Source of the DNA: Planctomycetota bacterium
GTDB taxonomy: Bacteria; Planctomycetota; Phycisphaerae; WQYP01
Assembly: GCA_021790385.1 (NCBI GenBank)
Contig: JAJYDW010000005.1
Location: 6,294 to 70,293, forward strand
Length of the DNA: 64,000 nt
Reading direction: 5' to 3'
Within the stretch, counting starts at the first letter, position 1. Every line of letters begins with the position of its first letter. Both the position numbers and the translations under genes were made by a program. The notes below the pieces were generated by a model, which was not told the DNA's origin, ran no database searches, and was given only the letters and a program-made list of their open reading frames with translations. Shown in pieces: positions 20,174 through 43,772 of this stretch.

Positions 20174-20731
20174 TTAGCTGTAGCAATCCACACTCTCCTG
20201 CCGCATCAACTTGCGAATTTCTATCAGCAACCGCTGCATATCCGCTTCATCCGTTACCCCCGCTGGAACCAGGGACACGGTTTCCACCGACTGATCCGGA
20301 CCAATTTTCCAGGTCACATCCACCACCAGTGACGCTTCCATAAACCCCTGCCAATGGACACTTTCCACCCGTGGCCGGGCCACCTGCGACCACGGCAATC
20401 TTCGACCGTCAAGCTTAAGCCCACCCGGCCCCGCTACGGCCCAAGCCCCGCGCACCCAGCTCAAAACCAAAAACAAATGAATCACCGCCGCCAGCACCAA
20501 TGCCGGCCCTGCCAAGTAAATAATGCGATTGTCGGCCAGGCCCAAACGCTGTGGCATCAGCAGCCCGACCACCATCAGGGTAATCGCCGCAACCACGGCC
20601 ACCCATGCCGCCAGTTCGCGCAGCCGCCCTGCCGGCGGAATCTTGCGCGGACCAATAAACACCAGCCCCTGGCGTTTCCACCAGAAACCACCCGTGTCAG
20701 AGGTATCGTTTTTTGAGGCAGTCTTCATCAT
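20174..20731 (-). CDS. Hypothetical membrane protein (2 TM plus PH-like C-terminus)
   Basis: Two hydrophobic segments; start uncertain (20773 or 20731). Confidence 0.55.
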   Translation of the reverse strand: MMKTASKNDTSDTGGFWWKRQGLVFIGPRKIPPAGRLRELAAWVAVVAAITLMVVGLLMPQRLGLADNRIIYLAGPALVLAAVIHLFLVLSWVRGAWAVAGPGGLKLDGRRLPWSQVARPRVESVHWQGFMEASLVVDVTWKIGPDQSVETVSLVPAGVTDEADMQRLLIEIRKLMRQESVDCYS

Positions 20732-21030
20732 GTCGGTTTTCAGTTTTGTTTGTGATCCACGGCCAGGCTTCAAACCCGATCGGTCCGTCGAATTGCATTA
20801 AATCGGAATGAATGATGTATTCTCGTTATGGGCGATACAACCCTGAACAGTATACAAAAACATCAGCAAATCCGCCAGTTTCCAATGCTGTCGTTGCAAA
20901 AAGTGTTGCATTGGAACAATAATTTACCTTTATAAAAGAAAAGCACTCTCTACTACCCACTGAAATCAAGGCACAGATCATGGTTATCGTTCGACGCGGC
21001 TTAACCCGACGTAATAGCCGCCACCTGCTG

Positions 21031-21766
21031 AAACGACATCGCTATAAAATGGAAGATTTTATTTTGGATGACCGGTGAGCAAGGACAGATGCAAGCAGAG
21101 ACCGCATGGATGCCCAACAATTATGGTCCTTGGTCCCGGCGTTGGTGAAGTATATCAAGGGATATTGGCTTTGGTTGAAGCGACACAACACCTTCCGACA
21201 GTTTTGCAGCTATCTGCCGGGTTTGATGGCGGATTTGGATCGTAAGAGCACTGTGCCCATTGCGTTGGCCACCGGCACGGCCGTTCGCACGTTACAGGAG
21301 TTCTTGGCCTTTTAAATCTGAGATCATGCCCGCATGGACCGTATGCTTGTGGACCACGTGGTTCAGCGTTGTCCAGAGGGTACATTGGAATCATAGAGGA
21401 TAGCGGGCACGCCAAACGTAGGGACAACACGCCCGGCGTGCAGCGTGAGTATTGTGGTGAGACCGGCAGGATTGATAACTTCGTGTTTGGCCAGCATTTA
21501 TTTTTTTATGGATAACCAGCCTTCGAATCCATTTTGTTGCATGTTGCAAAGTGACCTGCATCTGCCCAAAGGATGGCCGAAAGATCGCCCACGGTGTCAA
21601 GAGGCGGGCAGTGGCGATGATCGCTACCGAACTATGGCAGCGGTACTATTGTACGCGACGGTGGCTGCTTCATTGTTGTGCTTCCTACCAGATACGCCAT
21701 GCTGCTACTTACGCCAGTCGAAGACGCAGAAACAAAAATAAAGAGTTTTTATAGCGCTGTTTTTAG
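21031..21766 (+). mobile_element. Internally deleted IS701-family element (transposase pseudogene with both terminal IRs)
   Basis: Fragments GLMADLDRKS..PIA, GIIEDSGH..TPGVQREYCGETGRIDN and LQSDLHLPKGW..RCQEAG broken by stops and frameshifts; left end ACATCGCTATAAAA vs right end TTTTATAGCGCTGT (21747-21760). Confidence 0.8.
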
Positions 21767-21874
21767 GATCCACGGATCACTGAAGCTGCGATTCATAATA
21801 CGATCCGCGCCGCTATATCCTAAAATAGTACTGCGAATGAGCACTAAACGTCATTTGACCATACTTAAACTATA

Positions 21875-21951
21875 TGGAATAAAGTTATTCCAAAAAAACT
21901 TTTAAATTTTGTAGCTTTTTTATTTGACAAGGCCTATAAATGCTGTATGCT
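21875..21951 (+). promoter_or_regulatory. Palindromic operator 1 plus sigma70-type promoter
   Basis: TGGAATAAagTTATTCCA (21875-21892); TTGACA 21924-21929; TATGCT 21946-21951. Confidence 0.75.
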
Positions 21952-22059
21952 GGTCAACGTAGTAACACTGGCGGCTCCGGAAATGAGCCAACGGTCAGAT
22001 GAGGCGGTGTTTGCTTTGCCTGTGGTTTTTAGAGGGCGTTTGCATTGGAGGATTGAATC

Positions 22060-23628
22060 ATGCGAACGGAATTCAAATCATCTAAGTATGTAGCATTGGC
22101 ACTGGCAGCGGCGGTGGCAACTGCGGGCATTGCCGCTTCGGGCACAGCGGCGCGAGCCACTACGGCTACGTGGACGGGCGGTGGTGGAAGCGGCAATACC
22201 AATTGGTCAGACACGGCCAACTGGAGCGGAGGCAGTATTCCCGGCACCGGCGATACGGTGGCTTTCGGCACCAGTACTTCTCTGACGAGCTATAACGACA
22301 ATAGCGGCTTGTCGATTGCGGAATTGGCGTTTGGTTACCCGGCTTCTGGTGGCCCGGATTCATTTACACTGAGCGGCAACGCTCTGACCATTACCAGTAA
22401 TGGAGTATCCTCCGGGTACGGCGTGTACAGCGGGGCCGGTTCCGGAATAACCGAGACCGTCAATAACGATCTGAATTTCAGCGGTAACTCAACCGTGCGC
22501 GAAACCTCATCCGGAACAATTGTTCTTGATGGCACTATAGCTGGCAATGGCAACCTTACACTCAATGCCGGCAGTGGTGCCATCGTTCTTAACGACACCT
22601 CTGGTGGAACAGATACATTTACCGGCGGGCTGATTGGCATTAATGGCATTATCGACCTGAAGGCCGGTAACTACACGTTTCAGGGCAATAGCTACGCCTT
22701 ACAAGGTACCGTCACCATGACTGGCGGCAGTTTAACCCTCGGCAGTAGCAGTAGCGTGACAATAGAGAATGTAACCAACATATTCAACATCAGCGGTGGC
22801 ACACTTGCCTACAACGGTTGGTACCGAGGTGCCGGTAACACGACCATTTCTACTGGCGGCACTTTGACTGTTAACGCCGTCGGAGCCTCCGGCCCGCGCA
22901 TCTCGACTGACACCTATAACGGGGCGTTGACCGTAGCGGGGGGTAGCGCAACCTTCTCCAGTGTAATCACGGTCAATAATGCCGGCTCGACAAACACCGG
23001 TACCATTAACCTCAATTCAGGCACGCTTACAATGCCTGGCCTTCTATTTAACAGCACCACTAACGGCACGGCCGTAATCAATTCCAACGGTGGAACGCTG
23101 GAATTTTCCGCTGCGGACACCATCGCATCCAGCACCGCCGCCACCTGGAATGTGCTGGCTGGCGGGGCGGTTATTAATACTGATGGCAACAAGGTTACTA
23201 TTGATCAGGCGCTGGTAAGTGATGCCACCGCCGATGGCGGTTTAATCAAAGAGGGATCAGGTATGCTGAACCTGGCCAGCACTGCAAATACGTACAATGG
23301 CAATACCACTGTGAATGCCGGTACGCTGGAAATTAATTCCAACTTTCTGGCCAGCACCAGTACCGTGTCCATAACCAGTGGTGCCATCATGGACTTAAAT
23401 TACAGCAACACCGTTACAGATATCGTTAAAGCCCTGTACCTCAATGGCGTAAGCCAGGGAGCGGGCGTCTACGGCGCGGGCCATTTGGGTTCCACTTATT
23501 TCTCTGGTACCGGCACGCTGACGGTGCAGGGCAGCGACATTCCGGAGCCGGCAACACTGGCGCTGATGGCGATGGCCGGCATTGGCATGCTGACGATAAA
23601 ACGGCGAAAGAACATCGGTTCACTTTAA
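22060..23628 (+). CDS. PEP-CTERM surface protein with autotransporter-associated beta-strand repeats
   Basis: Signal peptide, WTGGG..NWSD..NW, GGLIKEGSGMLNL..NTYNGNTTVNAGTL, C-terminal IPEPAT-TM-KRRK. Confidence 0.9.
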   Translation: MRTEFKSSKYVALALAAAVATAGIAASGTAARATTATWTGGGGSGNTNWSDTANWSGGSIPGTGDTVAFGTSTSLTSYNDNSGLSIAELAFGYPASGGPDSFTLSGNALTITSNGVSSGYGVYSGAGSGITETVNNDLNFSGNSTVRETSSGTIVLDGTIAGNGNLTLNAGSGAIVLNDTSGGTDTFTGGLIGINGIIDLKAGNYTFQGNSYALQGTVTMTGGSLTLGSSSSVTIENVTNIFNISGGTLAYNGWYRGAGNTTISTGGTLTVNAVGASGPRISTDTYNGALTVAGGSATFSSVITVNNAGSTNTGTINLNSGTLTMPGLLFNSTTNGTAVINSNGGTLEFSAADTIASSTAATWNVLAGGAVINTDGNKVTIDQALVSDATADGGLIKEGSGMLNLASTANTYNGNTTVNAGTLEINSNFLASTSTVSITSGAIMDLNYSNTVTDIVKALYLNGVSQGAGVYGAGHLGSTYFSGTGTLTVQGSDIPEPATLALMAMAGIGMLTIKRRKNIGSL

Positions 23629-23646
23629 TAAAGATTGGGCGGTTAC

Positions 23647-24951
23647 ATGACGGAAATGCTGCAGCCACGCAAAACAGTGGGCGAAAGCTCATGGTTTGTG
23701 CGGGATCGGTTTGGGATGTTTATTCACTGGGGGTTGTATTCCATGGCGGCCCGGCACGAATGGGTGATGCATCACGAAAAAATTTCGCCCCAGGACTATG
23801 AAAAAAAATACTTTTCACGCTTTGATCCAGACCTGTATAACCCGCAGGCCTGGGCGGATGCGGCCAGCCGCGCCGGGATGAAGTATTTTGTGATTACCAC
23901 CAAGCATCACGAAGGATTTTGCCTGTGGGATTCCAAGCTTACCCCTTACAAGGCCACGCGCACGCCGGCCGGTCGTGACCTGCTGCGTCCCATGGTGGAG
24001 GCGTTTCGCCAACGGGATCTGCGGGTGGGCTTGTACCATTCTCTGATTGACTGGCACCATGACCAGTATGTGATTGATCCACACATTGGGCCGCTGCGGG
24101 ACCATCCGGATCGGGCCAAGCTCAACGAGGGGCGCAATCAGGCCAAGTATGCCGCGTATTTGCATGGGCAGGTGCGGGAATTGCTGAGCCACTACGGCAA
24201 AATTGATGTGCTGTGGTTTGATTTCAGCTACCCCAAGCCGGATGGCTCCGGCAAGGGTCGCCAGGACTGGCAAAGCGAGAAGCTCTACAAACTGGTGCGT
24301 AAGTTGCAGCCGAAGGTGCTGCTCAACGACCGCATAGACCTGCCGGATAGCTGGGACATCAAAACGCCGGAACAGGTGGTGCCGCGGCAAGGGGTGGTGG
24401 TGGACGGGCGGCCCGTGGTGTGGGAGGCGTGCCACACCTTTTCGGGTTCGTGGGGTTATCACCGGGATGAGCAATCATGGAAAAGTGTGGGGCAGTTGGT
24501 GGAAATGCTGGTTGACACAGTAAGTAAAAATGGCAATCTGCTGCTGAATGTAGGCCCCACATCCCGGGGCACTTTTGATGAACGGACGATGGAGCGGCTA
24601 AGCGGCATCGGCCAATGGATGGATCTGCACAGCCGATCTATTTACGGCTGCGGAGCTGCGCCGGCGGAATTTCCGGTACCGCAGGATTGTCGATTGACCT
24701 GGAATGCGGCCCGGAAGCGCATGTACGTGCATGTACTGGCGTGGCCATTCCGGCATCTGCACCTGGATGGATTCAAGAATCGGGTGGCATACGCCCAGTT
24801 GCTCAATGACGGTTCGGAAATAAACTTTCATCAGGACGGCCACCATGGGCTGCATTTTAAGGGTGTGGCCACACCGGAAACGCTGACCCTGGAATTGCCG
24901 GTGCAGCGGCCCCAGGTTACGGTACCGGTGATTGAACTGTTTATGAAATAG
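23647..24951 (+). CDS. Alpha-L-fucosidase (GH29), no signal peptide
   Basis: RFGMFIHWGLY, TTKHHEGF, LWFD nucleophile, NLLLNVGP. Confidence 0.93.
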   Translation: MTEMLQPRKTVGESSWFVRDRFGMFIHWGLYSMAARHEWVMHHEKISPQDYEKKYFSRFDPDLYNPQAWADAASRAGMKYFVITTKHHEGFCLWDSKLTPYKATRTPAGRDLLRPMVEAFRQRDLRVGLYHSLIDWHHDQYVIDPHIGPLRDHPDRAKLNEGRNQAKYAAYLHGQVRELLSHYGKIDVLWFDFSYPKPDGSGKGRQDWQSEKLYKLVRKLQPKVLLNDRIDLPDSWDIKTPEQVVPRQGVVVDGRPVVWEACHTFSGSWGYHRDEQSWKSVGQLVEMLVDTVSKNGNLLLNVGPTSRGTFDERTMERLSGIGQWMDLHSRSIYGCGAAPAEFPVPQDCRLTWNAARKRMYVHVLAWPFRHLHLDGFKNRVAYAQLLNDGSEINFHQDGHHGLHFKGVATPETLTLELPVQRPQVTVPVIELFMK

Positions 24952-25022
24952 CCGCAACTACAAATCGGCCCAACGGAACCGTTTGTCCCGCTGGGTTATC
25001 GACCGGCTTTTGTGCGTCTTGG

Positions 25023-26507
25023 TTATGGCGTAAGGCCCAGCCGGGTGTATTGTTCCAGCGGGGCTTCATAATTTTTCAGATGGGCTTTGAGCCGCTGAAT
25101 AAAATGGCTTTCAATCCCCTCATCGGTCAGCGGATGTTGCTGGTTAGGGTCGTGGAGTAAATCCCATAACTGATGCGGCCGGTCATATCCGTCCTCCTTC
25201 GTGGGGGCTTGGGGTACGCGGCCCGGCGTGGGAATTTTATACAGTGGCAAGTTATAGGTATGGCCAAAATACCGGCCCATTTCAATGTGTTCATGCACGG
25301 ACCGTGGAAACCATCTATTCATGCCGGCCACGGGCATGGCGGTATAGGCATGGAGCGGACCGCCATCGGGATTGATAGGATTACGCATGTAAAAATAGCG
25401 GCCATCGGTAATGTTGGTGGCCATGCCGAAATAGCCCAAAATACCGTCTTTGCGTACGGGCTGGCCGGCGATGGCGGGCCGAAGTGAGCGGCCATGGACA
25501 AACGGCGGTGGGGGCACACCGAAATAGTCCAGAAAAGTGGGCATGATGTCAATGGTCTGGGTCATGGTACTGATGCGGCCTGACGACGGGTTGCCACCGG
25601 GTGGTTTTATAATCAGGGGAATTCGTCCAATTTCGCGGTAAACGGGCATGAACACCTTCATCCAGAAGCCGTGTTCAGCGAGCATGGTACCATGGTCGGT
25701 GGTGAAAATGATCAGGGTTTCATCGAAAATACCAATTTCCTCGAGCTTGGCGAGTATTTTGCCCAGCCAGAAATCCGTCATGGTAAGCAGACCGGCGTAA
25801 CATTTGCGGATGTGCTCGACCGCCGCCGGGGATTCTTTAACCACGTCATATTTGGGCCAGTCAAAAAGAGGACCGTCCCAGGTATCATGGTACAAGTCGC
25901 GATATTGTTGGGTGCAATAGAAAGGCTCGTGCGGGTCAAATATCTCCACCTGCATAAACCAATTATCCGCATGACGATTATCTTCCAGCCATTGTATCGC
26001 ACTGGCGGCCGTGCGGTGGCCGGAAAAATCTTCTTCCCGCAGTTGGCGCAGACGGTTTTTATAGTTCTGGTCATCGCGTGGGGTTACACGAGGATCAAGT
26101 CTTTCCGGCATGGCGGGGCGATCGACCAGAGAAACCCAGGGGTCATATTCCTGGCCGCGGAACAGCTCCCAGGTGTTAAATGCGGTGTGATAGTTCTCGC
26201 CGCCGAGTTCAAAATAATGGTAATGATCGGTTAATAAATGGGTAAAAATGCCTTGATTCTGGAGGATTCGGGGCAGGACATCATCGTAGGGTTCAACAGG
26301 GCCCCAACCGCGATAGATAAAATTATACTGGCCGGTGGTAAATTCCCGTCTGGCCGGCATACAAGGCAGCGAACCGACCCAATGGTTATCAAATTGCAGA
26401 CCGCAGCCTGCCAAACGGTCAATATTGGGTGTTTTTACCCACGGGCTTCCGTAACACCCCAGGTAATCCTGCCGGACGGTATCCAGCACCAAAAACAACG
26501 CTTTCAT
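25023..26507 (-). CDS. Cys-type (formylglycine) sulfatase
   Basis: LDTVRQD, CMPAR signature, DPHEPF, TTDHG. Confidence 0.9.
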   Translation of the reverse strand: MKALFLVLDTVRQDYLGCYGSPWVKTPNIDRLAGCGLQFDNHWVGSLPCMPARREFTTGQYNFIYRGWGPVEPYDDVLPRILQNQGIFTHLLTDHYHYFELGGENYHTAFNTWELFRGQEYDPWVSLVDRPAMPERLDPRVTPRDDQNYKNRLRQLREEDFSGHRTAASAIQWLEDNRHADNWFMQVEIFDPHEPFYCTQQYRDLYHDTWDGPLFDWPKYDVVKESPAAVEHIRKCYAGLLTMTDFWLGKILAKLEEIGIFDETLIIFTTDHGTMLAEHGFWMKVFMPVYREIGRIPLIIKPPGGNPSSGRISTMTQTIDIMPTFLDYFGVPPPPFVHGRSLRPAIAGQPVRKDGILGYFGMATNITDGRYFYMRNPINPDGGPLHAYTAMPVAGMNRWFPRSVHEHIEMGRYFGHTYNLPLYKIPTPGRVPQAPTKEDGYDRPHQLWDLLHDPNQQHPLTDEGIESHFIQRLKAHLKNYEAPLEQYTRLGLTP

Positions 26508-26600
26508 AGAGTGTATCTCCGTGCCATGGCCGCAACGCGGAACCACTGAATTATAACAGAATATCGCGGAGAGAAGGAATTAGCATCATTCAATTTAATT

Positions 26601-26679
26601 CAGAATAAACTTATTCCAATATATTGTGTTTATAGTCTGATTCATTTTCCTTGCCATGAACGGGAAATCATGTTAGGAT
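26601..26679 (+). promoter_or_regulatory. Palindromic operator 2 plus sigma70-type promoter
   Basis: caGAATAAacTTATTCCA (26601-26618); TTGCCA 26651-26656; 17 bp; TGn-TAGGAT 26674-26679. Confidence 0.7.
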
Positions 26680-26777
26680 GATGATAAGGATGGCCGATAA
26701 CCAAAGAGGTGGAGTGTAACTGCTACGTTTTTGGGCGGCCCAGGTGCTCGGCGGTTGATGAAAATCAGGTGGCAGCC

Positions 26778-27599
26778 ATGCCAAAAAGGAATCAGAAAGC
26801 CTTTACATTGGTGGAACTGCTGGTGGTGATTTTGATCATTGCCATTTTAATCGCTCTTTTACTGCCGGCACTGGGGGCAGCAAGACAACTGGCGTATACG
26901 GTAGACTGCGAATCGAACTTAAGACAGATCGGCCTGGCTGCCCAAATGTATGAAAGTACGTACGATGATTTTATCCCCTGCCAGCAAAACTACGGCCCCC
27001 CAGCTTATTCAGGCATGCTTACGTGGGATAAGCAGTTGTATGAGTTTTTGAGCGGCCGATCGCTGACGCCGCAGCAGATCAACCACGATCTTCCGGCGAC
27101 GATGCGATTGCCGGTTTTTATGTGCCCGGATGATATTCGCGCCAGCCAAATTGGAGCGTCCTATCTCTATAATCAAGCCCCATTGTCGTATGCCATTGTT
27201 CAAGGCCCCATTTTTACGCCTGGCGGTCCCGGAATTTATGGGCTTATTGCTCCGGGGCAGGCACCTTACAGTACCGGCCAAGGGCCGACGGGCAGTTCAC
27301 TGCCTGACCCATCGGGCACACTTTATTGCACCGACAGCTTTGGCTTCTGTGATCAGTTTGCCGACCCGCCTTCTGCAACGGCCGGGGCTTTTCAGGGCAA
27401 CACATCGCCACCAAATTTTGTACGTAACCAGTATCAGGATGCCTGGACGGGCCAACTGCTGACACCGCCGCATAGCGGCGGCACGTACAATTATTTATAC
27501 CTTGATTGGCATGTGGAAAATAAACGCTACCAGGACACCGTTGGCACCGGTACGGTCGCCGTTCCCCGTGGCGCATGGACGGTTGCCGCCGGCGACTGA
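26778..27599 (+). CDS. Prepilin-type N-terminal cleavage/methylation protein (DUF1559/H-X9-DG-like)
   Basis: [50 protein letters not shown]. Confidence 0.88.
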
Positions 27600-28201
27600 A
27601 AAGAGCCTCGATTTACACCGCATCTGATGCACAACGTGTTGCTGCCGGCATGGTTGCGGCCAAGGCCATTGACCTGATAATCCTTACCTGATGACCCACA
27701 GCCGCTCTGCCCGCCGGCTTTACATCCATCGTTAACACACCGGTAGCTTTTAACAGTCTGTACGACGATCGGCGGCAGCCTACGGCGTTGGCTCTGACAG
27801 CAAGTTCATAGGCGAAACGTCTTTTATGCCATATTGTGTCTGGCGCAGCTTAATAGGCCGCATGGCACCCCGTTTGATCCATGTGCCATTGGCAACGTGC
27901 AGGTTCTTGGAAACTTAACTGCTGAAACATTCATTGGTAAGAGTTGCTGCACAGGGAGGCACGCAGTGGCCATTGCACGCCATCGCGGGGTGGCCAAAAT
28001 CCGCTCAATAGCATAATGCCTCTGTCACCTGCGTAAATGAGAGGCAGGGTAATCCAATCTCTTATGCCCAACTCGTGGAATTGATGGCGACGATACGCTT
28101 GAGAGAGCCTCTGTCTGCAGCGATCAGGATCGCCGCGACGCTGAACATCGGGGTTATGTGCATATCACCTGGAGAAGAAATTAGTATCATCCTATGTGAT
28201 A

Positions 28202-28279
28202 TAGAATAAGCTTATTCCAAAATAACTATCCAACTTCTAATTATTTATCCTTGCTATCCATGGGAACACATGGTAGTAT
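28202..28279 (+). promoter_or_regulatory. Palindromic operator 3 plus sigma70-type promoter
   Basis: TaGAATAAgcTTATTCCA (28202-28219); TTGCTA 28251-28256; 17 bp; TGn-TAGTAT 28274-28279. Confidence 0.7.
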
Positions 28280-28398
28280 AAAATTGAAGGGTAACCGATA
28301 ACCCCAAGCGGTGGAGTGCAACTGCGGTGTTTTTGGACGGCCATATAAAAATCTGCACTATGCCCAAACTATCGGCCGGGGAGCGTTGGCTGTACCGG

Positions 28399-28574
28399 AA
28401 GGAATGTGGAGTGTGGCGGCCGGCGATTAGGTGATCTTGGCGCGGTATTGAAAAAGTGGTTATTACTCTTGAGGAGTTATCATAAGTGTTAAAATTTCGG
28501 AAATTGAACGTAGTTGCGGTGCTGGTAATTATATTGGCCCTGGCTGGAGGCAGCGCGTGCCGGGCGGCCCAGGC
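28399..28574 (+). repeat. Direct repeat copy 1 (5'UTR + RBS + signal peptide), copy 2 at 32022-32198
   Basis: Closely similar ~176-bp sequence encoding (V)LKFRKLNVVAV.VIILALAGGSACR.AQA. Confidence 0.9.
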
Positions 28575-31500
28575 GGGTCAAACCGCCAAACCAGATACTC
28601 TGGCGGCCCAACGGCTGCTGCAACTGCTGGAGTTAAATCCGGGTCAGATGGCGAAGGATGCACTGCGCTTTCGGCCGCAACTGGTGCAGGTTTCCAAACT
28701 ATATTCAGCCGGGCACTATCGCCGGGCGCTGGACACTTTTTACAGTTATTACCTAAGCAAGTTTACGGCCCCGCAGAATTATGGTCTGCCCAGTGCATTG
28801 GCCAGTCCGTATCTGGCGTGGGGTTGCCGGCCTTTTTACTGCGTTCCGCCGCTGTTTAGCGCCCACACGCCGCCAAAAACAATTGTGGCTGCGGCCAATG
28901 ATCTGGTCAAAGGTATCATGAACCTTAATGGGCAGGAGGTTCATATCGGTCCGCCGGGCACAGTCAACTGGAATTATCCATTTCCCGCCGGCCAGCGTGT
29001 ACCGGCCATGTTAAAGCATCCGCAATTGCATCACTGGCAGGTGAATCCTAATCCGGAGCTCTTCACGCTGGGTGGATTTAATCCACTGGTCCAAGCCTAC
29101 ATGCTTACCCATAAAAAGATATACCTGATAACCTGGGCGGCATACCTGCAGGATTGGTGTACGCATTGTCATTACCTGGGAGAACTCAATCCGCTGTTTG
29201 TGCCGGATGGCGTTAATGCCCAACTCGGCGCAATGCCCATCAGCTTTATGCGCTTGCTGGAAGGTATAAAAAGTGTGAATCCAGATATTCAAAAGTATGT
29301 GCCGCCGGCGCTTTTTGCGGTGGCTTTGCGAAAAATGTACCTGGAATGTCTGCTGCCCGGCGTAGCTTATATTCGTTCCAACACTCACAATTGGACACCG
29401 GCTTCCAGTGCTGGCCTGATTAACCCGGTTGTGTTTGACGAGTTTAGCGGATCGGCCACGTTGTTTCGCAACATTGCCCGGCGCAGCATTGAAAATGTGG
29501 AAACCACACAAGCGTTCCGCGACGGCTCGGAAACGCAGGAAGACCCCTGGTATGATCAATTTGATTATGCCAATATCTGGTGGATGATGCGACTGCTGGA
29601 TTCACGCTGCCTGATGGTGCCACCCTGGCAGATGATTTCCTGGGAATCGGCGGTGGCCAACAATCCATTTTTTCATCAGGATGTGCAGCGTCTGCTGCGC
29701 CGCAAAAATACATTTTTAACACATCTGCAAACTCCGCAGGGTGAGTGGCCCATCACGTTCCGAGGAGATCAGCGTCGGGCCGGTGCAATGCCCTACCCAT
29801 ATGCGCCTCAGGCCTGGAATAATCCGGTAAATGCGGCGATTATGGAGGCCATCTTTAATCCTACGGCGGGCGTTGCGCCGCCGTATACCTGCGATTGGTT
29901 TCCTTATATCGGCTTGGCCATTATACGCGATGGGTGGAAGCCCACCAGTAGTTATGGAGCCTTGTTTTGCTCGCCGCATCCGCCGGGTTACGGAGCTTAT
30001 CGTGGTCGCAGTGATAACAACAGTTTTGGCCTGGCAGCTTATGGTCAGGACTTGCTGGTGAACAATACCACCGGCCATTATATGTACCCAACTTCGCCGA
30101 TGAAAGTGAATGGTTTTAACCAGTTTTTTGAGACCGGCATCTATAAAGTTCCGTCGCCGGAAGGCCATAAATCTTATGAAGTTCACGCCTGGCACACTCC
30201 GGCTCCCTGGCTGTGGTATGCCTCTTCCACGCTGAACCTGGCCGAGGGCATTTACGCCGGCCGCTGGGGCGATTTGCAGCGTCCGCGCACCGTGGCCGGC
30301 CCGTACGGCCCGGATCAAAGTATGCAGGGCACCCTGACCAAGGCCCAAACCTTTGGCGGGGTGATATTTCAGCGACAGGTGATGCAGGTACGCCGGGCAA
30401 AGCTGTGGATTGTTACCGATCGGCTGCTTACCAAAAAGAATAACCACTACACGCAGATCTGGCGTTTGCCGATTTCGCCGACGCCTTCTTCATATCCGAG
30501 AGCATTTAAGCTATCGCATATTCATATCAATGCGGCGGACAGGTCCATCATCACGGACCAGCCCAATGGGCATGGCAAGTGGAGGCCGATTCCCAAGGCC
30601 AATATGCAGTTGTTGCAATTCAGTCTGGCCCATCTGGCTTATTCTTCAAAGTTGGTCGTTCAGCCGCCCATGGTCTGGAAAACACGCAAATTTTATGTTC
30701 ATCCAAACCTGGATCGCATTGCCGTGAAATGGCATGGCAGGGGTAACCAGCAAATTGTTACGGCGATTCTGGTGGTGCCACCGGGATCCACCCAGGGCAT
30801 GAAAAAACTGCATCAAATCACCAGCGGCAAACAAGGAATTGGTTTTCAGGCGGTAACACCCGATGGCCTGCAGGTGGCGTATCTGGCTTCGCCCAGGGCG
30901 GAGGATGTTTTATCTTTGCCGCAAATGACGATCCATGGACGGGCGCTGCTTCTGGCCGGCAGCCAGGGCATGGCCCTGGGTTGCAGCAGCATCAGCGTGG
31001 GAGGGAAAGCGGTGCATGCAGGCTACCGCAACTTTGCATTCCACCTGGTGGGCGGCAGATTAGCCGACGTGCATCCGATTCATCGGCCGATTGTACCGGT
31101 GAAAATTATGCCTGATACCACGGCCTTTGTTGGACACTTGAAAGTAACCCTAAGTACACCTACTGCGGGCGTAGAAATTCGGTATACCACCAATGGGGCC
31201 AATCCAACGCCACAATCACCTTTGTACACCAGGCCCTTTACCCTTGATCACACCGCCAAGGTGCAGGCCCGGGCCTATCGACCGGGAGTAACATCCAATC
31301 CGATGACCTTAAGCGGCATCCATGCCACCCCTGCTACCGAGGCGATATTTCATAAAATTCACGTGCAGCCGGCATTGCCTTTCTGGATGGCCAGAGTTTG
31401 TAAGCCTGGCGTAGAATGTGCATATTATCAGGCCGGCTGGCAACAGATGTGGTTGAACCTGCAAAATCTCAAACCCCAGAAAACCGGCGTGGTGGGCCAC

Positions 31501-31959
31501 CTGTGGGCCATGAAATTTATTCCCGCCGACAATCCGCCGGTGGGAATGGCGGCAGCCCCGCGCAAAAAGTATTACGCGCTAGTGTATCATGGTTATTTAA
31601 ACGTGCCGACAACCGGGGTGTATACCCTGCATGCGCCCAAAGTTTATTACATTGCCAGCACAGATCCTGGCTACCAGTTGCGGGTATATGTAGGCCAGCA
31701 GTTAATCGAGTGGAATCCATCCGAGCGCGTTCACGCTTTTGGCAACTGGAGCGTGGCTTTGGCCAAAGGGATGCATAAGTTTAAGATTGTGTATATCGAT
31801 TACCGGACGAATTCAACCGAGCGGCTGAATTATCCGGGCATCCGCGATTACATCTGGGATGGGGTCAGGCCGAACCTGGAGATTTCCGGTCCGGGTGTAA
31901 AGAAACAGCCAATCCCTACGACCTGGCTGCAATACCGTCCGCAGAAGACGGGCAAGTGA
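28486..31959 (+). CDS. Large exported multidomain protein: heparinase II/III-like core + Fn3-associated domain + PA14-like domain
   Basis: Signal peptide; WFPYIGLAIIRDGW...DNNSFGLAAYGQDLLV; EIRYTTNGANPT; C-terminal YHGYLNVPTTGVYT...LAKGMHKFKIVY. Confidence 0.65.
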   Translation: MLKFRKLNVVAVLVIILALAGGSACRAAQAGQTAKPDTLAAQRLLQLLELNPGQMAKDALRFRPQLVQVSKLYSAGHYRRALDTFYSYYLSKFTAPQNYGLPSALASPYLAWGCRPFYCVPPLFSAHTPPKTIVAAANDLVKGIMNLNGQEVHIGPPGTVNWNYPFPAGQRVPAMLKHPQLHHWQVNPNPELFTLGGFNPLVQAYMLTHKKIYLITWAAYLQDWCTHCHYLGELNPLFVPDGVNAQLGAMPISFMRLLEGIKSVNPDIQKYVPPALFAVALRKMYLECLLPGVAYIRSNTHNWTPASSAGLINPVVFDEFSGSATLFRNIARRSIENVETTQAFRDGSETQEDPWYDQFDYANIWWMMRLLDSRCLMVPPWQMISWESAVANNPFFHQDVQRLLRRKNTFLTHLQTPQGEWPITFRGDQRRAGAMPYPYAPQAWNNPVNAAIMEAIFNPTAGVAPPYTCDWFPYIGLAIIRDGWKPTSSYGALFCSPHPPGYGAYRGRSDNNSFGLAAYGQDLLVNNTTGHYMYPTSPMKVNGFNQFFETGIYKVPSPEGHKSYEVHAWHTPAPWLWYASSTLNLAEGIYAGRWGDLQRPRTVAGPYGPDQSMQGTLTKAQTFGGVIFQRQVMQVRRAKLWIVTDRLLTKKNNHYTQIWRLPISPTPSSYPRAFKLSHIHINAADRSIITDQPNGHGKWRPIPKANMQLLQFSLAHLAYSSKLVVQPPMVWKTRKFYVHPNLDRIAVKWHGRGNQQIVTAILVVPPGSTQGMKKLHQITSGKQGIGFQAVTPDGLQVAYLASPRAEDVLSLPQMTIHGRALLLAGSQGMALGCSSISVGGKAVHAGYRNFAFHLVGGRLADVHPIHRPIVPVKIMPDTTAFVGHLKVTLSTPTAGVEIRYTTNGANPTPQSPLYTRPFTLDHTAKVQARAYRPGVTSNPMTLSGIHATPATEAIFHKIHVQPALPFWMARVCKPGVECAYYQAGWQQMWLNLQNLKPQKTGVVGHLWAMKFIPADNPPVGMAAAPRKKYYALVYHGYLNVPTTGVYTLHAPKVYYIASTDPGYQLRVYVGQQLIEWNPSERVHAFGNWSVALAKGMHKFKIVYIDYRTNSTERLNYPGIRDYIWDGVRPNLEISGPGVKKQPIPTTWLQYRPQKTGK

Positions 31960-32021
31960 ATGCTGCCGGCGGCAGCGAATTTGCACGCCAAGGAGTATTT
32001 TGATGCCTTGGGGAAAAGCTT

Positions 32022-32198
32022 AAGGAATGTGGACGCTGGCTGCCGGCGATTAGGCGGTCTTGACGCGGTGTTGAAAAAAGTGGTTACTACTCTTGAAGGA
32101 GTTATCATAGTGTTAAAATTTCGGAAATTGAACGTAGTTGCGGTGTCGGTAATTATATTGGCCCTGGCTGGAGGCAGCGCGTGCCGGGTGGCCCAGGC
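32022..32198 (+). repeat. Direct repeat copy 2 (5'UTR + RBS + signal peptide)
   Basis: Matches 28399-28574. Confidence 0.9.
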
Positions 32199-33504
32199 AG
32201 CAAGCCCTGCCGGCAGGGAACATACCGCAGATATGCGCTGGTGGAAGCAGGCTCGCTTTGGCATGTTTATTCACTGGGGTATTTACAGCCAGGCAGCGGG
32301 CTATTGGCAGGGCAAATCCATACCTGGAGATGGCGCGTGGATCATGGATCAGGCTCATCTGACACGGAAAGCCTAAAGCACGCTGCCTGCACAGTTTGAT
32401 CCGGTTGATTTCAACGCGAACCGGTGGGTCCGCATGGCCAGGCGGGCGGGGGTCAAATACATCGTGATCACCTCAAAACATCACGACGGTTTTTGCATGT
32501 TCCATACCAGGGCCACGCATTTTAACGTAGTCGATGACACACCCTGGCACAAGGATCCGCTGGCCATGCTGGCGAAAGCCTGCAAAAAATACGGCATCCG
32601 CTTTTGCACCTATTATTCGATTCAGGACTGACATAGCCGCTACACGCTGCCGGCTATCGGCAATCCGAATCAGGGGCATCCAACGTGGCAGCCCATGCGG
32701 TTTACCGCCAATGGCGGCGGTGAAAAGTACGTGCATTATGTGCAGCGGCAGGTGGGCGAATTGATCCGCCAATACCATCCAGGCATCATCTGGTTTGATA
32801 ATTTCTATGTGAAACCGTGGGTAACACGGCACGGCCGGCATATTGCCGGCTGGACCTATTCCTATGCCAAGCAGGTGTTTGATGATGTGCGTAAGCTGGA
32901 TCCAACGGTGATTGTCAACAATCGGCTGGATTATGGCTTGGGAGATTACAAAACTCCGGAACAGCACATTCCGCCACAGGGCTTGCCGGGCGCGTGGGAA
33001 ACCTGCATGACCATCAACGGGACCTGGGGTTATAAACGCGATGATCATCACTGGAAAACGCCGGCAATACTAATTACCAACCTGATCAAATGCGCCAGCG
33101 GAGGCGGAAATTTTCTACTGAATGTAGGCCCCACGGGCAAAGGCCTCATCCCGCAACCGGAAGTTCAGCGGATGCGGGCGATAGGTAAGTGGCTTAAAGT
33201 AAACGGCCAGGCCATTTATGGTTCGCATCGCACGCCATTTGCCAAGGCTTTACCATTTGGTTATGCGACGCAAAAACCGGGAATGCTATTTTTAGAAGTT
33301 ACCCGCTGGCCTCATCACCAGCCACTGCTGGTGCCGATACGCAATAAAATACAAAGAGCGTATGTACTTGGGTTCCCGCAAGTGAAAGTAAAAGTGAAAA
33401 ATGAACCACGCGGCTGTTTGTTGTATCTGCCCGGCAAAATGCCCGATCCTGTGGCCACGGTTATCGCTTTGAAAATATCGGGTGCGCCGCATCCGTTGCC
33501 GTAA
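32110..33504 (+). pseudogene. Exported alpha-L-fucosidase (GH29) with two in-frame nonsense codons
   Basis: Three ORF pieces all in one frame; TAA 32374-32376 and TGA 32629-32631 (QD*H where GH29 has DWH); motifs RFGMFIHWG, TSKHHDGF, IWFD, FLLNVGP intact. Confidence 0.88.
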
Positions 33505-33578
33505 AATCTATCGCCGCTGGAGGTATGGGCTGCTTCAATAACGGCTTTGGCTGACTTTGGCCAGGCTATGATGAGAAC

Positions 33579-33603
33579 GGGCGAAAATAAGGCTTTTTCG
33601 CCT
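33579..33603. terminator. Possible bidirectional hairpin between convergent genes
   Basis: GGCGAAAA-taaggct-TTTTCGCC. Confidence 0.35.
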
Positions 33604-33610
33604 GGGCCGG

Positions 33611-34951
33611 TCAGCTATTTTCGTCGGCCACCGCCTTAAACCATTGCACCAGTTTGTAATTGGGTTGCCATTGGCCATGCGCTGGTACCACCGTGGCGTT
33701 GGCATAGAGCATGGTCAGTGCATACTGAGCATATTTGGCGGCGCGCACGGGGTTGCCGATAATTTTATATTGTCGTCCGCCGGAATAGGCGCTAAGCAGC
33801 ACGCGATTCCGGCGCATCAATTGCCAGGACTTTTGCATAAAGGTGGGGCTTAGCGGGGCGGTGGCCATGAAATCATTCCATTGTTCCAGAACTACGGGAT
33901 GTTGCATGCAGGCGAGGGTGTAGTCGGCGTTAGTGAGTTTGGCGGGCTGTTTCCAATGAGAGGCAAAATGACCATCGAGTGGCTTTTTGATCCAGTCATT
34001 GAGTACCGGGCTTTGGCTCCATTCGGTACTTAGGAATGGCTTATCGGTGAGTGTACGGGCGAAGGTTAGTTGCCGGTGCATGGAGGCAACATCTTTAACA
34101 TAAAGATGCAGGTCCAGGGCGGAAATATGGCTGTTGCGATTGGTCCACGCGCACAGGTCATGGGTAAAACCGGTACAAGCCTTGATCCAGTTGGTAGAGG
34201 CGGCGTTGCAGCTCATCACCTGCGGGAGAATGTTAATGGCCGGGGCAGAAATTGGCAGGGTGGGGCGGATTTTGTGGATTTCCCGGGCCACGGCGGAGTA
34301 CCAGGTCAATACAGGAATGGTGCCGTTGGCAGATCGGTGCCAATTGGACTCTTTAAGAAAGGTTAAAGGTTCGTTATCCAGTGTTACGTAGTAGAGTTGA
34401 TCACCCATGATGTGCATGAATTGCCGAACCAGTTGCAGCCATTGCCGGCCGCGGGGTGAATTCACTGCGGGTATAGGCAAGGCTTGTCCCCAATTGCCCC
34501 ACAAAAACGTTACCACCGGTTTGATACCCGCCTTATGGAGAGCCCGGATGACCGCAAAGGACCAGGGCCACGGGCCATGGCCGGCCTGGGCCGTCAGTGC
34601 CTGCGGAAGTATTTTTTGCAGCACTACAATGGGCACAATCAACCGTACCGCATGGGCGTCAATAGCCCGGGCCTCATGCAGAGATGGCACATCAAAGCCA
34701 CCAAATATGGTTGAGTGTGGCAACTTGCGTATGGATGCCTCAAGAGGTGGGGAGGCAAGAGAAGCTACAGATAGTGCGGTGCCGGTGGCGAGCATTTCGC
34801 GTACAAAATGGCGGCGGGAAACCGGTTGAGTCGTCATGACGGGCTGGCCGGAATTTTCCGGTGTTATCTGGAGCATTGTGGACGGTAAAGGAATTTGAGA
34901 GATCGTCATGGTGTTATTCTCCAAAAGATATTTTCCGGGCTGCAGGACCAT
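33611..34951 (-). CDS. Tat-exported putative clan GH-A glycoside hydrolase of unassigned family
   Basis: SRRHFVRE twin-arginine motif (start may be 34837), DNEP, DLHLY and STEW motifs. Confidence 0.55.
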   Translation of the reverse strand: MVLQPGKYLLENNTMTISQIPLPSTMLQITPENSGQPVMTTQPVSRRHFVREMLATGTALSVASLASPPLEASIRKLPHSTIFGGFDVPSLHEARAIDAHAVRLIVPIVVLQKILPQALTAQAGHGPWPWSFAVIRALHKAGIKPVVTFLWGNWGQALPIPAVNSPRGRQWLQLVRQFMHIMGDQLYYVTLDNEPLTFLKESNWHRSANGTIPVLTWYSAVAREIHKIRPTLPISAPAINILPQVMSCNAASTNWIKACTGFTHDLCAWTNRNSHISALDLHLYVKDVASMHRQLTFARTLTDKPFLSTEWSQSPVLNDWIKKPLDGHFASHWKQPAKLTNADYTLACMQHPVVLEQWNDFMATAPLSPTFMQKSWQLMRRNRVLLSAYSGGRQYKIIGNPVRAAKYAQYALTMLYANATVVPAHGQWQPNYKLVQWFKAVADENS

Positions 34952-35112
34952 TTGAAAACTCCAACGACAGCGTTTGCGGGCTGCGGATAAGCTGCTAAGC
35001 GGTGGCGGTTATACCCAATTCGACCACTGGTAATAGCTGTGGGCCAGGTTCGCAGCCGCAATCGAACGAACCAATCATAACCTGCAAAAATGACAATGCA
35101 AGCGCAATATAT

Positions 35113-35190
35113 TGGAATAATCTTATTCCAAAATAATATTTATTTTTTGGAGTTTTTTTGCTTGACACGGCGGTGATTTTGTGTTACATT
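35113..35190 (+). promoter_or_regulatory. Palindromic operator 4 plus sigma70-type promoter
   Basis: TGGAATAAtcTTATTCCA (35113-35130); TTGACA 35162-35167; 17 bp; TGn-TACATT 35185-35190. Confidence 0.8.
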
Positions 35191-35319
35191 TTGGACATCC
35201 ATGGCAGGCTGATGTGGCTTGCTGACGTTTTGTAGTTGTTGGTCTTGGTCTGAGGGCAATGCACAGTCGTGTCGAGTGCCAGGGTTGGACCAGTGGACCC
35301 AGGAACAAGGAGTTTAATT

Positions 35320-36132
35320 ATGCGAAGCAAGAAACACACGATGACGGGCCAGAAGATGGCGTGGTTGGCGGGAGTGGCCGGAGCGGTGTCGCTGGCGGCG
35401 GGAGCCGGAATGCCGGGGCAGGCGCGGGCCACGGTTTACCTGAGCAACAACTTTAACAACAACGGCACCGGCTTAGGCGCAGGCTGGACTGCACCAAACG
35501 GCGATGTTACAGACACCGGCACTGAGTCGGCATTTACCAATATCACTGGCGGCAACAGCGCGTTGTTGGACTCATCGGCGAACACGGGGTTGCTCTCGCC
35601 AACACTCAGCGGGTTTACGACCAGTGATCCAATCCAAATAAGCTTCGATTTTGACATTACAGCAGCCAACCAAAGCAACAATGACACCTTTTTGTTAAAC
35701 AACAGAAACATCATTTTGAATTTCGGTTCTTCAGCAACCAAAATACCCAATACACCCTCGGCAATGGTGTACAAGAATGGGAGCAATGCTGTCACAGCAA
35801 GCTTTACTCCCAGTCTTAATACGTGGTACCGGATTATACTTGGCCTTTCAGCCGAGAATGCCGCCCTTCCGTCATGGAACCTTAACGTTATTAACATCTC
35901 GGGCCAATCGTTGTATTCTGCAGCAAACATCCATTTCTCCAACACTCTGGCACCTTATAGTTCGTTTAACTATTCCTTCAACGTGCCAACCCCTGTTTCT
36001 GGGGCCTCGTTTCAGATCGACAATGTGCTGGTCCAGTCGCCGGTTGTTCCCGAGCCGGCGGAGATTTCGCTGGTGGGTTTGGGCGGCTTGGGCCTGCTTA
36101 TTTTAAGCCCACGCCGGCGGGCACGGAGGTAA
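35320..36132 (+). CDS. PEP-CTERM surface protein (possible lectin-like beta-sandwich)
   Basis: AAGGAG SD, signal peptide, N/S/T-rich, LNTWYRI, FQIDNV, VPEPA-TM-RRRARR. Confidence 0.85.
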   Translation: MRSKKHTMTGQKMAWLAGVAGAVSLAAGAGMPGQARATVYLSNNFNNNGTGLGAGWTAPNGDVTDTGTESAFTNITGGNSALLDSSANTGLLSPTLSGFTTSDPIQISFDFDITAANQSNNDTFLLNNRNIILNFGSSATKIPNTPSAMVYKNGSNAVTASFTPSLNTWYRIILGLSAENAALPSWNLNVINISGQSLYSAANIHFSNTLAPYSSFNYSFNVPTPVSGASFQIDNVLVQSPVVPEPAEISLVGLGGLGLLILSPRRRARR

Positions 36133-36385
36133 TATGAGCGGATGGCTTAACACTGTGGTTGGTGCGGGCCGGTTGTGGCGATTTGACAGAAACGGAAAGA
36201 AGAACCGGTCCATCCCCAAGGTGGTTTTGAGCTGGCGGAGATCAGGCTGTTGGTGATGTTGACAGGCACCACTGCCAATGTGTGGGCTATTGAAGGAATT
36301 GCAGACGGTACCGCCAGCCAGATCCGGTGGTGTGGTGGGTTTTGTGCAGTGAGTCATCAGCTTACACCTTACAAGGAGCCTGGCC

Positions 36386-37414
36386 ATGAAACGACGCACC
36401 ATTTCAGCGTTTACATTAATTGAATTACTGGTGGTAATTTCCATCATCGCAATTTTGATTGCGTTACTTCTGCCGGCTTTGGCTGCGGCAAGGCAGGATG
36501 CAGACAAGGTGGTATGTGCAGCCAACTTGCGCAGCAATGTGCAGGCTATGATCACTTATGCTCAGGCCAATAATCAGATGTTTCCGGCCACTCCCGGTCC
36601 GTTACCGGGCGATTTATTTAACAATTTCCCCTCCGATCCGACATATTGGTATGCAGGCCAAACCGCGAATTCGGTGATTAAAGACTGGTACGGCGGTGGC
36701 TATCCGGGCAGTTATGGCGCGCTGACAGTTAATGATTGCGGCAATCCGCTGGCATGTATGTGGCTGTTGGTGCTGGATGGCCAAACCACACCGCAAACGT
36801 TTATCTGCCCGTCAGACCCCATCGCTTTGGCACCATCGCTGTTGTATATTCCCAACAATCCAGGGGCTGGTGGGGCCTATGGGGACTTTTGCGTTACCGC
36901 TGCCGTGGCTGCAACCGGCAAGGACATGAACTACACCGGAGTTGGCGAAAGTTATTCTATTGCCTATCCATGGCAAACCTCGCCCACCACAAGTGCCGAG
37001 CCTATCGGCAATTGGTGGATGAATAATAATTTATCCAACCTGCCGCTGATGTGTGATATGGCTCCTGCCAACAGTCAAAACGGAGTGAACACCAAAACCA
37101 CGTTGGCAGACGACACGGCCGGGCCGATTATTTTTAGCTCCGGCAACCATGCCGGCACGGGCGAAAATGTAGCGTTTGGCGATGATCATGTGGTATGGGA
37201 GGATAATCCATACTGCGGACAGCACCATGACAATATTTTCACCATGGATGTCATTGAGCCGCCTACGACCGACGATCAAACACTATCGTACGACCAAATC
37301 GGCATAGGAGAAGGTGCCCCCCCATATTTTTCCAAAACGCCGCTATTGCCGCAGCAACAGCCTTTTGACACGGTCATGGTTCCGGTACGTAACACCACCA
37401 GCGCCACGTGGTAA
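36386..37414 (+). CDS. Prepilin-type N-terminal cleavage/methylation protein (DUF1559/H-X9-DG-like)
   Basis: [49 protein letters not shown]. Confidence 0.88.
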   Translation: MKRRTISAFTLIELLVVISIIAILIALLLPALAAARQDADKVVCAANLRSNVQAMITYAQANNQMFPATPGPLPGDLFNNFPSDPTYWYAGQTANSVIKDWYGGGYPGSYGALTVNDCGNPLACMWLLVLDGQTTPQTFICPSDPIALAPSLLYIPNNPGAGGAYGDFCVTAAVAATGKDMNYTGVGESYSIAYPWQTSPTTSAEPIGNWWMNNNLSNLPLMCDMAPANSQNGVNTKTTLADDTAGPIIFSSGNHAGTGENVAFGDDHVVWEDNPYCGQHHDNIFTMDVIEPPTTDDQTLSYDQIGIGEGAPPYFSKTPLLPQQQPFDTVMVPVRNTTSATW

Positions 37415-37547
37415 TCGATCCTCCTCAGCCGGCATTTGGGTAAATGGCTGGGGCCGGCGTCTGGCGGCTGGTGGTACCTGGCGGTACGTTGGCGCATGCA
37501 AAAGCAGCCTGTGAATTTGATCCTGATGGTTGATTGATAATAGCAAG

Positions 37548-39121: not shown

Positions 39122-39134
39122 AAAGATGTGGAAC

Positions 39135-43709: not shown

Positions 43710-43772
43710 GCCCGGGCCAGAGTTGTGGAACAAACATGGCCGGCAAGCCACAAAAAAAATGGGAAACGCTCT

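Follow-up and report, generated by a model that had tools for sequence, protein, structure and literature searches.

What is the role of an 18-bp palindrome that stands upstream of four promoters, each time at nearly the same distance, in a locus rich in sulfatase, fucosidase and prepilin-type genes? The question is raised by a stretch of 64,000 nucleotides (nt) from a Planctomycetota bacterium (assembly GCA_021790385.1, contig JAJYDW010000005.1, positions 6,294–70,293), called here the window, whose own positions are used throughout; an earlier reading of it, the original prediction, had noticed the palindromes and ascribed them to an activator, possibly the LacI-family protein encoded at 42612. 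Our analysis indicates that the palindrome is a real operator of a small local regulon, the observation being confirmed as it was written, and that it is very probably bound by a transcription factor that controls these promoters. As a working model, still tentative and built on sequence comparison, we propose that it is the operator of a dimeric factor dedicated to the locus, most likely that LacI-family protein (P0002), which would contact RNA polymerase and would most likely activate transcription.

The window was searched for the pattern TGGAATAANNTTATTCCA with at most two mismatches, and 100 shuffles served as the null. Four matches to the palindrome TGGAATAA-N2-TTATTCCA were found, compared with a shuffle expectation of 0.02, and none of the 100 shuffles held four or more. 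Site 1 (TGGAATAAAGTTATTCCA, 21875–21892) and site 4 (TGGAATAATCTTATTCCA, 35113–35130) have no mismatch, site 3 (TAGAATAAGCTTATTCCA, 28202–28219) has one and site 2 (CAGAATAAACTTATTCCA, 26601–26618) has two; as palindromes they are assigned to no strand, and their central dinucleotides are AG, AC, GC and TC. They are followed after 31, 32, 31 and 31 nt by predicted plus-strand promoters: P1 (TTGACA-16-TATGCT, 21924–21951, scoring 10/12), P2 (TTGCCA-17-TAGGAT, 26651–26679, TG ahead of the -10, 9/12), P3 (TTGCTA-17-TAGTAT, 28251–28279, 8/12, under the scan threshold) and P4 (TTGACA-17-TACATT, 35162–35190, TG ahead of the -10, 10/12). An extended -10 TGn is present at three of the four, P1 having instead TG directly before its -10. 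Pattern search and hexamer scoring therefore reproduce the distances and the 16–17-nt spacers originally given. A consensus scan of positions 20700–39200 returned P1 and P4 as its only two 10-of-12 matches; it also returned 21 promoter-like matches against 20.0 expected by chance, and alone it proves nothing. Sites 2 and 3 are, as had been proposed, duplicates of each other: they belong to an old duplication of about 180 nt (78% identity) that starts 40 nt ahead of the palindrome and runs into the leader.

The genome-wide search for the site that the original prediction called for was run by pattern search on the draft genome (G000; 3,602,934 bases, 106 contigs, 55.7% G+C). It gave 18 matches with up to three mismatches and just five with up to two, the fifth (C44:5653) lying in a G+C-rich stretch immediately outside the window. 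Beyond the four sites, this search of the whole 3.6-Mb draft found no copy of the palindrome in a promoter context, and the regulon is thus strictly local.

Among 41 related genomes searched, the exact 16-nt core of the palindrome is present in four (this one, G003, G004 and G021), and with two mismatches allowed all four congeneric genomes (G001–G004) match. Seven sites with at most two mismatches stand at orthologous promoters, one in G001 and two each in G002, G003 and G004: P1 has its counterparts in G001, G002 and G003, P2 in G002 and G004, and P4 in G003 and G004, where site 4 is conserved exactly. G003 also holds a degenerate P2 site, GGGAATAGATAGATTCCA, which keeps GGAAT-N6-ATTCC. The matches inspected in G021 and on two G003 contigs (C141 and C145) are in G+C-rich sequence without promoters, and the same two words also occur in G002 and G004. 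Site 3 is found in this genome only, and is new there, because the relatives have a single P2 copy, which drives the prepilin-type, heparinase-like and fucosidase genes as one array. Alignments of the orthologues show conservation of the half-sites, of the T-tract with its -35 and of the first part of the -10, and drift in the flanks, the spacer and the central dinucleotide (AG, AC, GA, TT and CT in the relatives). At P1 the sequences of different species become similar exactly at the palindrome, the upstream neighbours differing in each genome.

The sites had been described as fixed in position upstream of the promoter, and this holds across species. Over 12 sites in this genome and its congeners, the gap from palindrome to -35 is 31 nt at five, 32 nt at six and 29 nt at one (the gap of the G003 P2 site was counted by hand). 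Sites 2 and 4 had further been suspected to serve divergent genes; both face a divergent promoter, that of a sulfatase gene in 4/4 species and that of a gene for a protein with a Tat-like signal in 3/3. The sulfatase promoter (minus strand, -10 TATAAT at 26550–26555, 45 nt from the palindrome edge) has a poor -35, and in 4/4 species a perfect TATAAT (6/6) is found 44–45 nt past site 2 on the minus strand with a poor -35 (TTCCTT, TTCCCT, TTCATA or TTCCCA) 21–22 nt from the palindrome. The promoter of the Tat-signal gene (TTGCAT-16-TATGAT, minus strand, 35074–35101) has its -35 hexamer 11 nt from site 4; its counterparts are TTGCAA-16-TATAAT with a gap of 10 nt in G003 and TTGACA-17-TAACCT with a gap of 11 nt in G004. 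The palindrome is therefore found 10–11 nt (3/3 species), 21–22 nt (4/4 species) or 31–32 nt from the -35 position, and 32–34, 44–45 or 52–55 nt from the -10, in steps of about one helical turn. If transcription is assumed to start 7 nt past the predicted -10, the palindrome centres fall at about -54.5, -66 and -75.5. With these predicted promoters, the centres are upstream of -50 and the same helical face is presented at more than one distance, the two features that define class I placement, with the 29-nt gap as the one exception. We infer that action depends on the face of the helix because the gaps of 10–11, 21–22 and 31–32 nt differ by about one turn. This phasing, with predicted promoters as its basis, is the strongest argument that the bound protein faces RNA polymerase, and it favours such an arrangement. 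The spacer between site and -35 is 75–94% A+T.

Which protein reads the palindrome? The LacI-family regulator P0002 (42612–43709, plus strand) is the only transcription factor among the scanned open reading frames (ORFs) of the locus, which comprised the long ORFs and a few short ones. It has the helix-turn-helix (HTH) and the sugar-binding core of the LacI/GalR family (PF00356, 1.7e-15, residues 5–49; PF13377, 5.8e-10), and its residues 3–351 align with RbsR (9ny7_A, E 2.4e-11). It is the first gene of a unit continued on the plus strand by a GDSL/SGNH hydrolase (43725–44867) and a sodium:solute symporter (44870–46699), and an orthologue shares a contig with the sites in G003 and in G004. Where other members of the family have their hinge helix, which inserts into the central CG of the operator, P0002 has YTPPTPDKRRGRRIG: compared with RbsR, the hinge-helix segment is replaced, the Leu position is Arg and the linker is longer, and by sequence there is no canonical hinge helix of the A-x-x-L type. 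This is not peculiar to P0002, as among 116 homologues with the HTH the basic Pro/Gly motif is present in 101 and a canonical hinge in one; in a closer set of homologues R55 and G57 are invariant, R56 and R59 nearly so. The close homologues are labelled Phycisphaerae by their sources. A 199-amino-acid ORF upstream of P1 was also considered as a regulator and rejected, having no Pfam or NCBIfam match; it is unrelated to a 197-amino-acid ORF, itself without a Pfam match, beside a site on contig C66 (see below). G004 holds two copies of the LacI-GDSL-symporter unit, on contigs C51 and C86, with 95% and 82% identity to the window; the C86 copy is like that of G001 and G003 and may come from a co-binned relative.

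The leader of the P0002 gene provides comparative support. Its promoter (TTGACA-18-TAATAT, 42527–42556, plus strand) is conserved in G001, G003 and G004, and 7 nt past the -10 lies a direct repeat, TGGAACAT-CAA-TGGAATAA (42564–42582, plus strand), a putative autoregulatory operator. The leader repeat TGGAAC-N5-TGGAAY is kept in the same three congeners; genus g7, with a protein of 59% identity, repeats this layout with TGGAA-N6-TGGAA after the -10; a Tepidisphaerales orthologue has ATTTCCAATGGAAAT in its leader, and in two metagenome orthologues TGGAA is present twice and three times. For orthologues with the GVGxGTVSR helix, in six lineages, the upstream 150 nt contain TGGAA or TTCCA 12 times against 1.6 expected, a count that 0 of 20,000 shuffles reached, and upstream of three relatives with a different helix it does not occur at all. 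Two orthologues with 42–44% identity, from 401 genomes of the phylum, have one TGGAA between them and no repeat. The search for true orthologues yielded four useful loci of 80 on genome contigs and three of 80 on metagenome contigs. In two g7 genomes (G024 and G010) an 8-2-8 site, with two and three mismatches, is conserved upstream of a gene named by eye as GH3-like, 63–64 nt from a possible TATGCT, a distance that would suit a fourth turn; the promoter scores 7/12 and the case was not counted as evidence. Among local regulators of the LacI family, over three-quarters control their own genes, according to an excerpt of PMC4052901.

The paralogous LacI loci of the same genome point in the same direction. 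Six LacI-HTH genes are present, and A+T-rich TGGAA inverted repeats lie within 15 kb only of the two that have GVG[IV]GTVSRVIN; within 15 kb of the other four none was found. Beside the paralogue on contig C24 (hinge HRGRPRR), TGGAATAT-N9-ATATTCCA is followed exactly 20 nt later by TTGACA-16-TACATT. Contig C66 begins with the C-terminal part of a LacI protein, followed by GH29, ABC transporter, PATR, DUF1559, heparinase-like and beta-helix proteins, and carries TGGAAC-N14-GTTCCA and TGGAATTT-N9-ATATTCCA, each 20 nt ahead of TTGACT or TTGACA. These C24 and C66 repeats (n=3) have a wider spacing, TGGAAT/C-N13-14-ATTCCA, and their inner parts are A+T-rich throughout; the TGGAAC site of C66 is kept in G004 with a changed inner spacer, one base longer (N15), and the same 20-nt gap, which is in phase with the 21–22-nt class. 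A genome-wide count of half-site pairs in any orientation, with spacers of 0–12 nt, gave 85 against 4–145 for seven control words, and is too noisy to provide more than leads. The leader repeats and the co-occurrence with one HTH type thus support the originally proposed assignment of the palindrome to the 42612 protein, and on this comparative basis we consider P0002 its likely binder; binding itself is still inferred. Two further observations were made in these searches. Upstream of position 3534 on contig C101, the leader of another LacI-family gene without a canonical hinge contains a 21-nt palindrome, AAACTGTTTC-A-GAAACAGTTT, which is likely a separate type of operator. In G004, at a spot (L018, ~3250, contig C51) that lacks both the PATR gene and site P1, GGAATAAG-CGCAAT-CTTATTCC, a pair of inverted half-sites with a 6-nt centre, in G+C-rich sequence upstream of the fucosidase gene, may be a relic or due to chance.

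The model that we favour is the following. Each HTH of a P0002 dimer would read an outer TGGAAT, and the basic Pro/Gly/Arg linker would lie along the A+T-rich centre, giving a dimer with loosely tethered reading heads whose half-sites would thereby be separated by 4 bp more than those of canonical LacI operators. One dimer would serve P1, one would be shared by P2 and the sulfatase promoter, and one by P4 and the promoter of the Tat-signal gene, always on the same helix face relative to the core promoter and presumably in response to an effector. Contact would probably be made with the alpha C-terminal domain of RNA polymerase across the A+T-rich spacer, and the direct TGGAA repeats, from about +2 to +20, probably let P0002 repress its own gene. 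That P0002 activates by touching RNA polymerase is favoured because the phase is kept at three distances, because the stretch from site to -35 is A+T-rich and because the sulfatase promoter lacks a -35; activator-dependent promoters often combine a perfect TATAAT with a poor -35. Should P0002 be the binder, control is probably positive. Of the activator-controlled regulon originally proposed, the local regulon and the three phased gaps that class I geometry needs are borne out, and activation itself keeps the rank of a proposal, P1 and P4 being near-consensus.

Several observations weigh against this model. The phasing is built on predicted promoters and not on mapped starts, the -35 of the sulfatase promoter is assigned by position alone, and the exceptional 29-nt gap is that of P4 in G003. 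P1 and P4, near-consensus (10/12) and with A+T-rich DNA upstream, have the look of promoters that are strong by themselves, not of ones that depend on an activator. Most members of the LacI family are repressors, and the leader site of P0002 is itself in a repressing position. The word TGGAA was chosen after inspection of this genome, which contributes 2 of the 12 occurrences, so that the test is not fully independent and 10 are left without it. In 18 loci (159 kb) around LacI relatives of other lineages only three TGGAA inverted repeats were seen, none of them, by eye, before a TTGACA-type promoter, and in those loci no comparable upstream inverted repeats occur outside this genus and g7. G002, an 87%-complete assembly, keeps the P1 and P2 sites and is without the whole region corresponding to 33600–47200, LacI gene included; this may be an assembly gap, and if the loss is real the LacI protein is not needed for conservation of the sites. 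Finally, the linkers of the two LacI paralogues are almost equally long (24 and 25 residues, by hand count) although the half-site spacings that go with them differ, so that the model gives no explanation for the separation of their regulons.

The alternative that survives best, although we hold it to be rather improbable, keeps the operator and the LacI protein and reverses the sign: the phased contact would hold or misplace the alpha C-terminal domain, or would block an activator or an UP element, making P0002 an anti-activator or a contact repressor in the manner of CytR and GalR, and an inducing sugar would release it. The family's habit of repression and the leader site fit this idea, as does the expectation that P1 and P4, with a consensus -35 and TG before the -10, should fire unaided; the spacer is UP-element-like and could be disabled by a neighbouring protein. 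GalR is said to repress from -60.5 through the alpha subunit, and CytR reportedly binds between CRP sites and upstream of the core promoter, not on top of it. CytR, the closest analogue of the P0002 linker, represses CRP-dependent activation by interacting with CRP, as described in a portion of PMC9422980. Nevertheless, in the alignments we saw by eye no second operator or partner site conserved beside or downstream of the palindromes; the sulfatase promoter, without a -35 in 4/4 species and without a TG extension in G003 and G004, looks dependent on help; and a helical phase preserved over three distances typically, but not exclusively, goes with activation.

A second alternative, which we regard as improbable, is that the palindromes are bound by an unlinked activator of another family, such as a dimer of the CRP/FNR, IclR or AraC type, P0002 controlling only its own operon through the direct repeats and the co-occurrence of LacI and TGGAAT reflecting merely the presence of a LacI gene in every glycan locus. 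The position and phasing of the sites are classic for class I activators, and G002 keeps sites although no LacI gene was found in its assembly. The palindrome presumably resembles the Escherichia coli IclR box, and weak matches to IclR-type and Crp-type HTH domains, six of each, are found elsewhere in the genome. LacI operators seldom have an 8-2-8 layout with a degenerate centre (of 1303, 29 have a degenerate central pair and 1173 have CG, in figures excerpted from PMC4052901). However, none of those IclR- or Crp-type matches is on the 98.9-kb contig of the locus, and a factor with just four promoter-context sites would be expected to be encoded adjacent to them. Moreover, LacI orthologues of several lineages have the same pentamer in their leaders, and only those with one HTH type do. 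A point of a different kind is that a rigid dimer could not also read the N13–N15 variants.

It is most improbable that the palindrome is no regulatory-protein site at all but the end of a mobile element, a site of recombination, a terminator or a piece of an alternative-sigma promoter in a duplicated module: the promoter modules do share a T-tract followed by TTGACA, possibly from a common ancestral module, serine-recombinase sites have a 2-bp centre and some extracytoplasmic function (ECF) -35 elements resemble GGAAT, but half-sites, gap length and -35 were kept while the spacers of orthologues diverged, which shows selection on the kept features, and there is no transposase near sites 2–4. 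Specific candidates of this kind were examined and rejected. A serine-recombinase site is incompatible with the differing centres (AG, AC, GC, TC), which recombination between sites would not tolerate; an intrinsic terminator, with the 7-bp A/U-rich stem, which is followed by A's and no U-tract; a sigma-54 promoter, with the lack of GG-N10-GC, the sole GG..GC pair having 9 nt between by eye; and an ECF -35 element, with the lack of a matching -10.

The preferred model, a P0002 dimer contacting RNA polymerase, combines features of several known systems. CytR is its closest analogue and, like P0002, is a LacI-family protein with a flexible linker. It bears Pro57 and Gly59 as helix breakers in its hinge and binds octamers in direct or inverted orientation with spacers of 0–11 bp, as stated in part of PMC9422980. 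P0002 is not its orthologue: CytR is its second-best NCBIfam match, with 52 bits against a cut-off of 436, and the present system also differs in its half-site (TGGAATAA), in a linker with an invariant RRGxR (RGRP in the paralogue), and in a sign of control that may be positive. CytR works with CRP; here no CRP-like flanking motif was seen by eye in the alignments, no formal motif search having been made. The present system has inverted 8-2-8 sites at the four promoters, a direct 8-3-8 site in the LacI leader and, in the paralogous loci, inverted hexamers with N13–N15 between them; this would amount to the flexibility of CytR if one protein read them all.

Canonical operators of LacI, GalR and PurR are likewise even palindromes read by a dimer in a local sugar-catabolic regulon with likely autoregulation, in an excerpt of PMC4052901, whose figures include a central CG in 1173 of 1303 LacI-family motifs and a degenerate centre in 29, with more than 75% of sites 30–140 nt before the start codon. 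The sites described here differ in that their centres are 168–198 nt before the start codons, that they do not overlap the core promoter and that this even 18-bp palindrome is without the central CG pair. The canonical LacI-family operator core is 14 bp, and the TG...CA ends of the present palindrome are 4 bp further apart than in it. Its TGGAAT half-site resembles the TGnAAn half-sites of the family and presumably also half of the GalR operator.

With class I activation the sites share an upstream position on one helix face, several distances one turn apart and A+T-rich room for the alpha C-terminal domain. CRP acts as a class I activator from -61.5, -72.5 and -82.5; CcpA is said to act at ackA from -56.5, and Cra at icd from -76.5. 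The centres here differ in that they are reckoned from predicted starts and in that some of the target promoters are near-consensus. Cra, a LacI-family member, up-regulates when bound upstream of the promoter, according to a section of PMC5888115. The element is therefore a combination of known kinds, a LacI-family operator with CytR-like flexibility and class-I-like placement, and not a new category. Our literature searches turned up no work on LacI operators, on LacI proteins lacking a hinge or on promoter control in Planctomycetota, and none on the way in which this phylum turns on its many genes for glycan degradation; one apparent hit was the family name Lacipirellulaceae.

The genes controlled by these promoters are consistent with one function. 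The P1 operon (22060–24951, plus strand) encodes a PATR/PEP-CTERM protein (22060–23628; PF12951, PF07589) and a GH29 alpha-L-fucosidase (23635–24951; PF01120). The sulfatase gene divergent from site 2 (25023–26546, minus strand; PF00884, 9.1e-37) has its likely start, by eye, at an ATG near 26508. P2 drives a gene for a DUF1559/prepilin-type N-terminal methylation protein (26778–27599, plus strand; Pfam/NCBIfam). After P3 there is a remnant of this DUF1559 prepilin-type gene, followed on the plus strand by a gene for a 1157-amino-acid heparinase II/III-like protein with a CHB_HEX_C domain (28486–31959; Pfam) and by a GH29 fucosidase gene present as two ORFs (31960–32376 and 32695–33504; Pfam). 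These ORFs correspond to the two ends of the Pfam model and are a single ORF in the G003 and G004 orthologues; by this comparison the gene is either frameshifted or broken, or the split is an assembly error. The Tat-signal gene divergent from site 4 (33611–34951, minus strand) encodes a 446-amino-acid protein with the Tat-like signal SRRHFV and no Pfam or NCBIfam match. The P4 operon (35320–38450, plus strand; Pfam/NCBIfam) encodes a PEP-CTERM protein (35320–36132), a prepilin-type protein (36386–37414) and a GH43-like protein (37530–38450), and between it and the LacI gene lie, on the minus strand, genes for a beta-helix protein and a second sulfatase. By gene content, the locus looks like a cluster for the utilisation of a sulfated fucan, a fucose-rich glycan.

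The leaders were also inspected. Hairpins with T-runs are present at 26686–26777, 28308–28325, 22002–22021 and 35202–35224, and a block, GGTGGAGTG(T/C)AACTGC...GTTTTTGG, is kept between the P2 and P3 leader copies. Folding was better than in shuffled sequence for the P2 leader (z = -2.4, with 2 of 200 shuffles as good) and no better for the leaders of P1, P3 and P4; a leader attenuator may exist but is not supported. No RNA run was listed as matching positions 26000–35999. In three metatranscriptome contig sets compared with positions 21500–38500, we found just a 258-nt piece in the gene of the 446-amino-acid protein and two short paralogue-like pieces.

The locus is flanked on both sides (17253–20090 and 47943–51303, minus strand) by genes for an HMGL-like/LeuA-dimer protein (551 and 531 amino acids) and a radical-SAM protein (361 and 326 amino acids), which suggests either that the flank was duplicated or that the locus inserted into a duplicated region. 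The stretch 20774–22059, over the 1.3 kb upstream of site 1, contains no ORF of at least 100 amino acids; its counterpart in G002 contains transposase genes (HTH_Tnp_1, DDE_Tnp_ISAZ013), and the left edge of the locus is different in each species compared. Past the GH43-like gene, two stretches of about 57 nt (38637–38693 and 38848–38906) have 84–87% identical copies on many G004 contigs and form a small dispersed repeat.

If our model is correct, one sulfated-fucan locus gains a cis-element, a candidate regulator and a geometry that can be tested, together with a natural series of operators at one, two and three turns, such as is usually constructed in the laboratory to demonstrate class I activation. 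The model would also point to a large undescribed branch of the LacI family in which the hinge helix, the part that defines how the family binds DNA, has been replaced, and it would yield inducible promoter parts for a phylum with few genetic tools. A broader generalisation, which we consider doubtful at present, is that a LacI subfamily, so far known by name from Planctomycetota and Verrucomicrobiota, has an AT-hook-like basic Pro/Gly linker (RRGxR/RGRP) in place of the minor-groove hinge helix and consists of class I activators dependent on the helix face, rather than of repressors that occlude the operator, which would sit at about -55, -66 and -76, and possibly -86, at glycan promoters including bidirectional pairs, with paralogues that would share TGGAAT and be separated by half-site spacing (6 versus 13–15 nt between hexamers).

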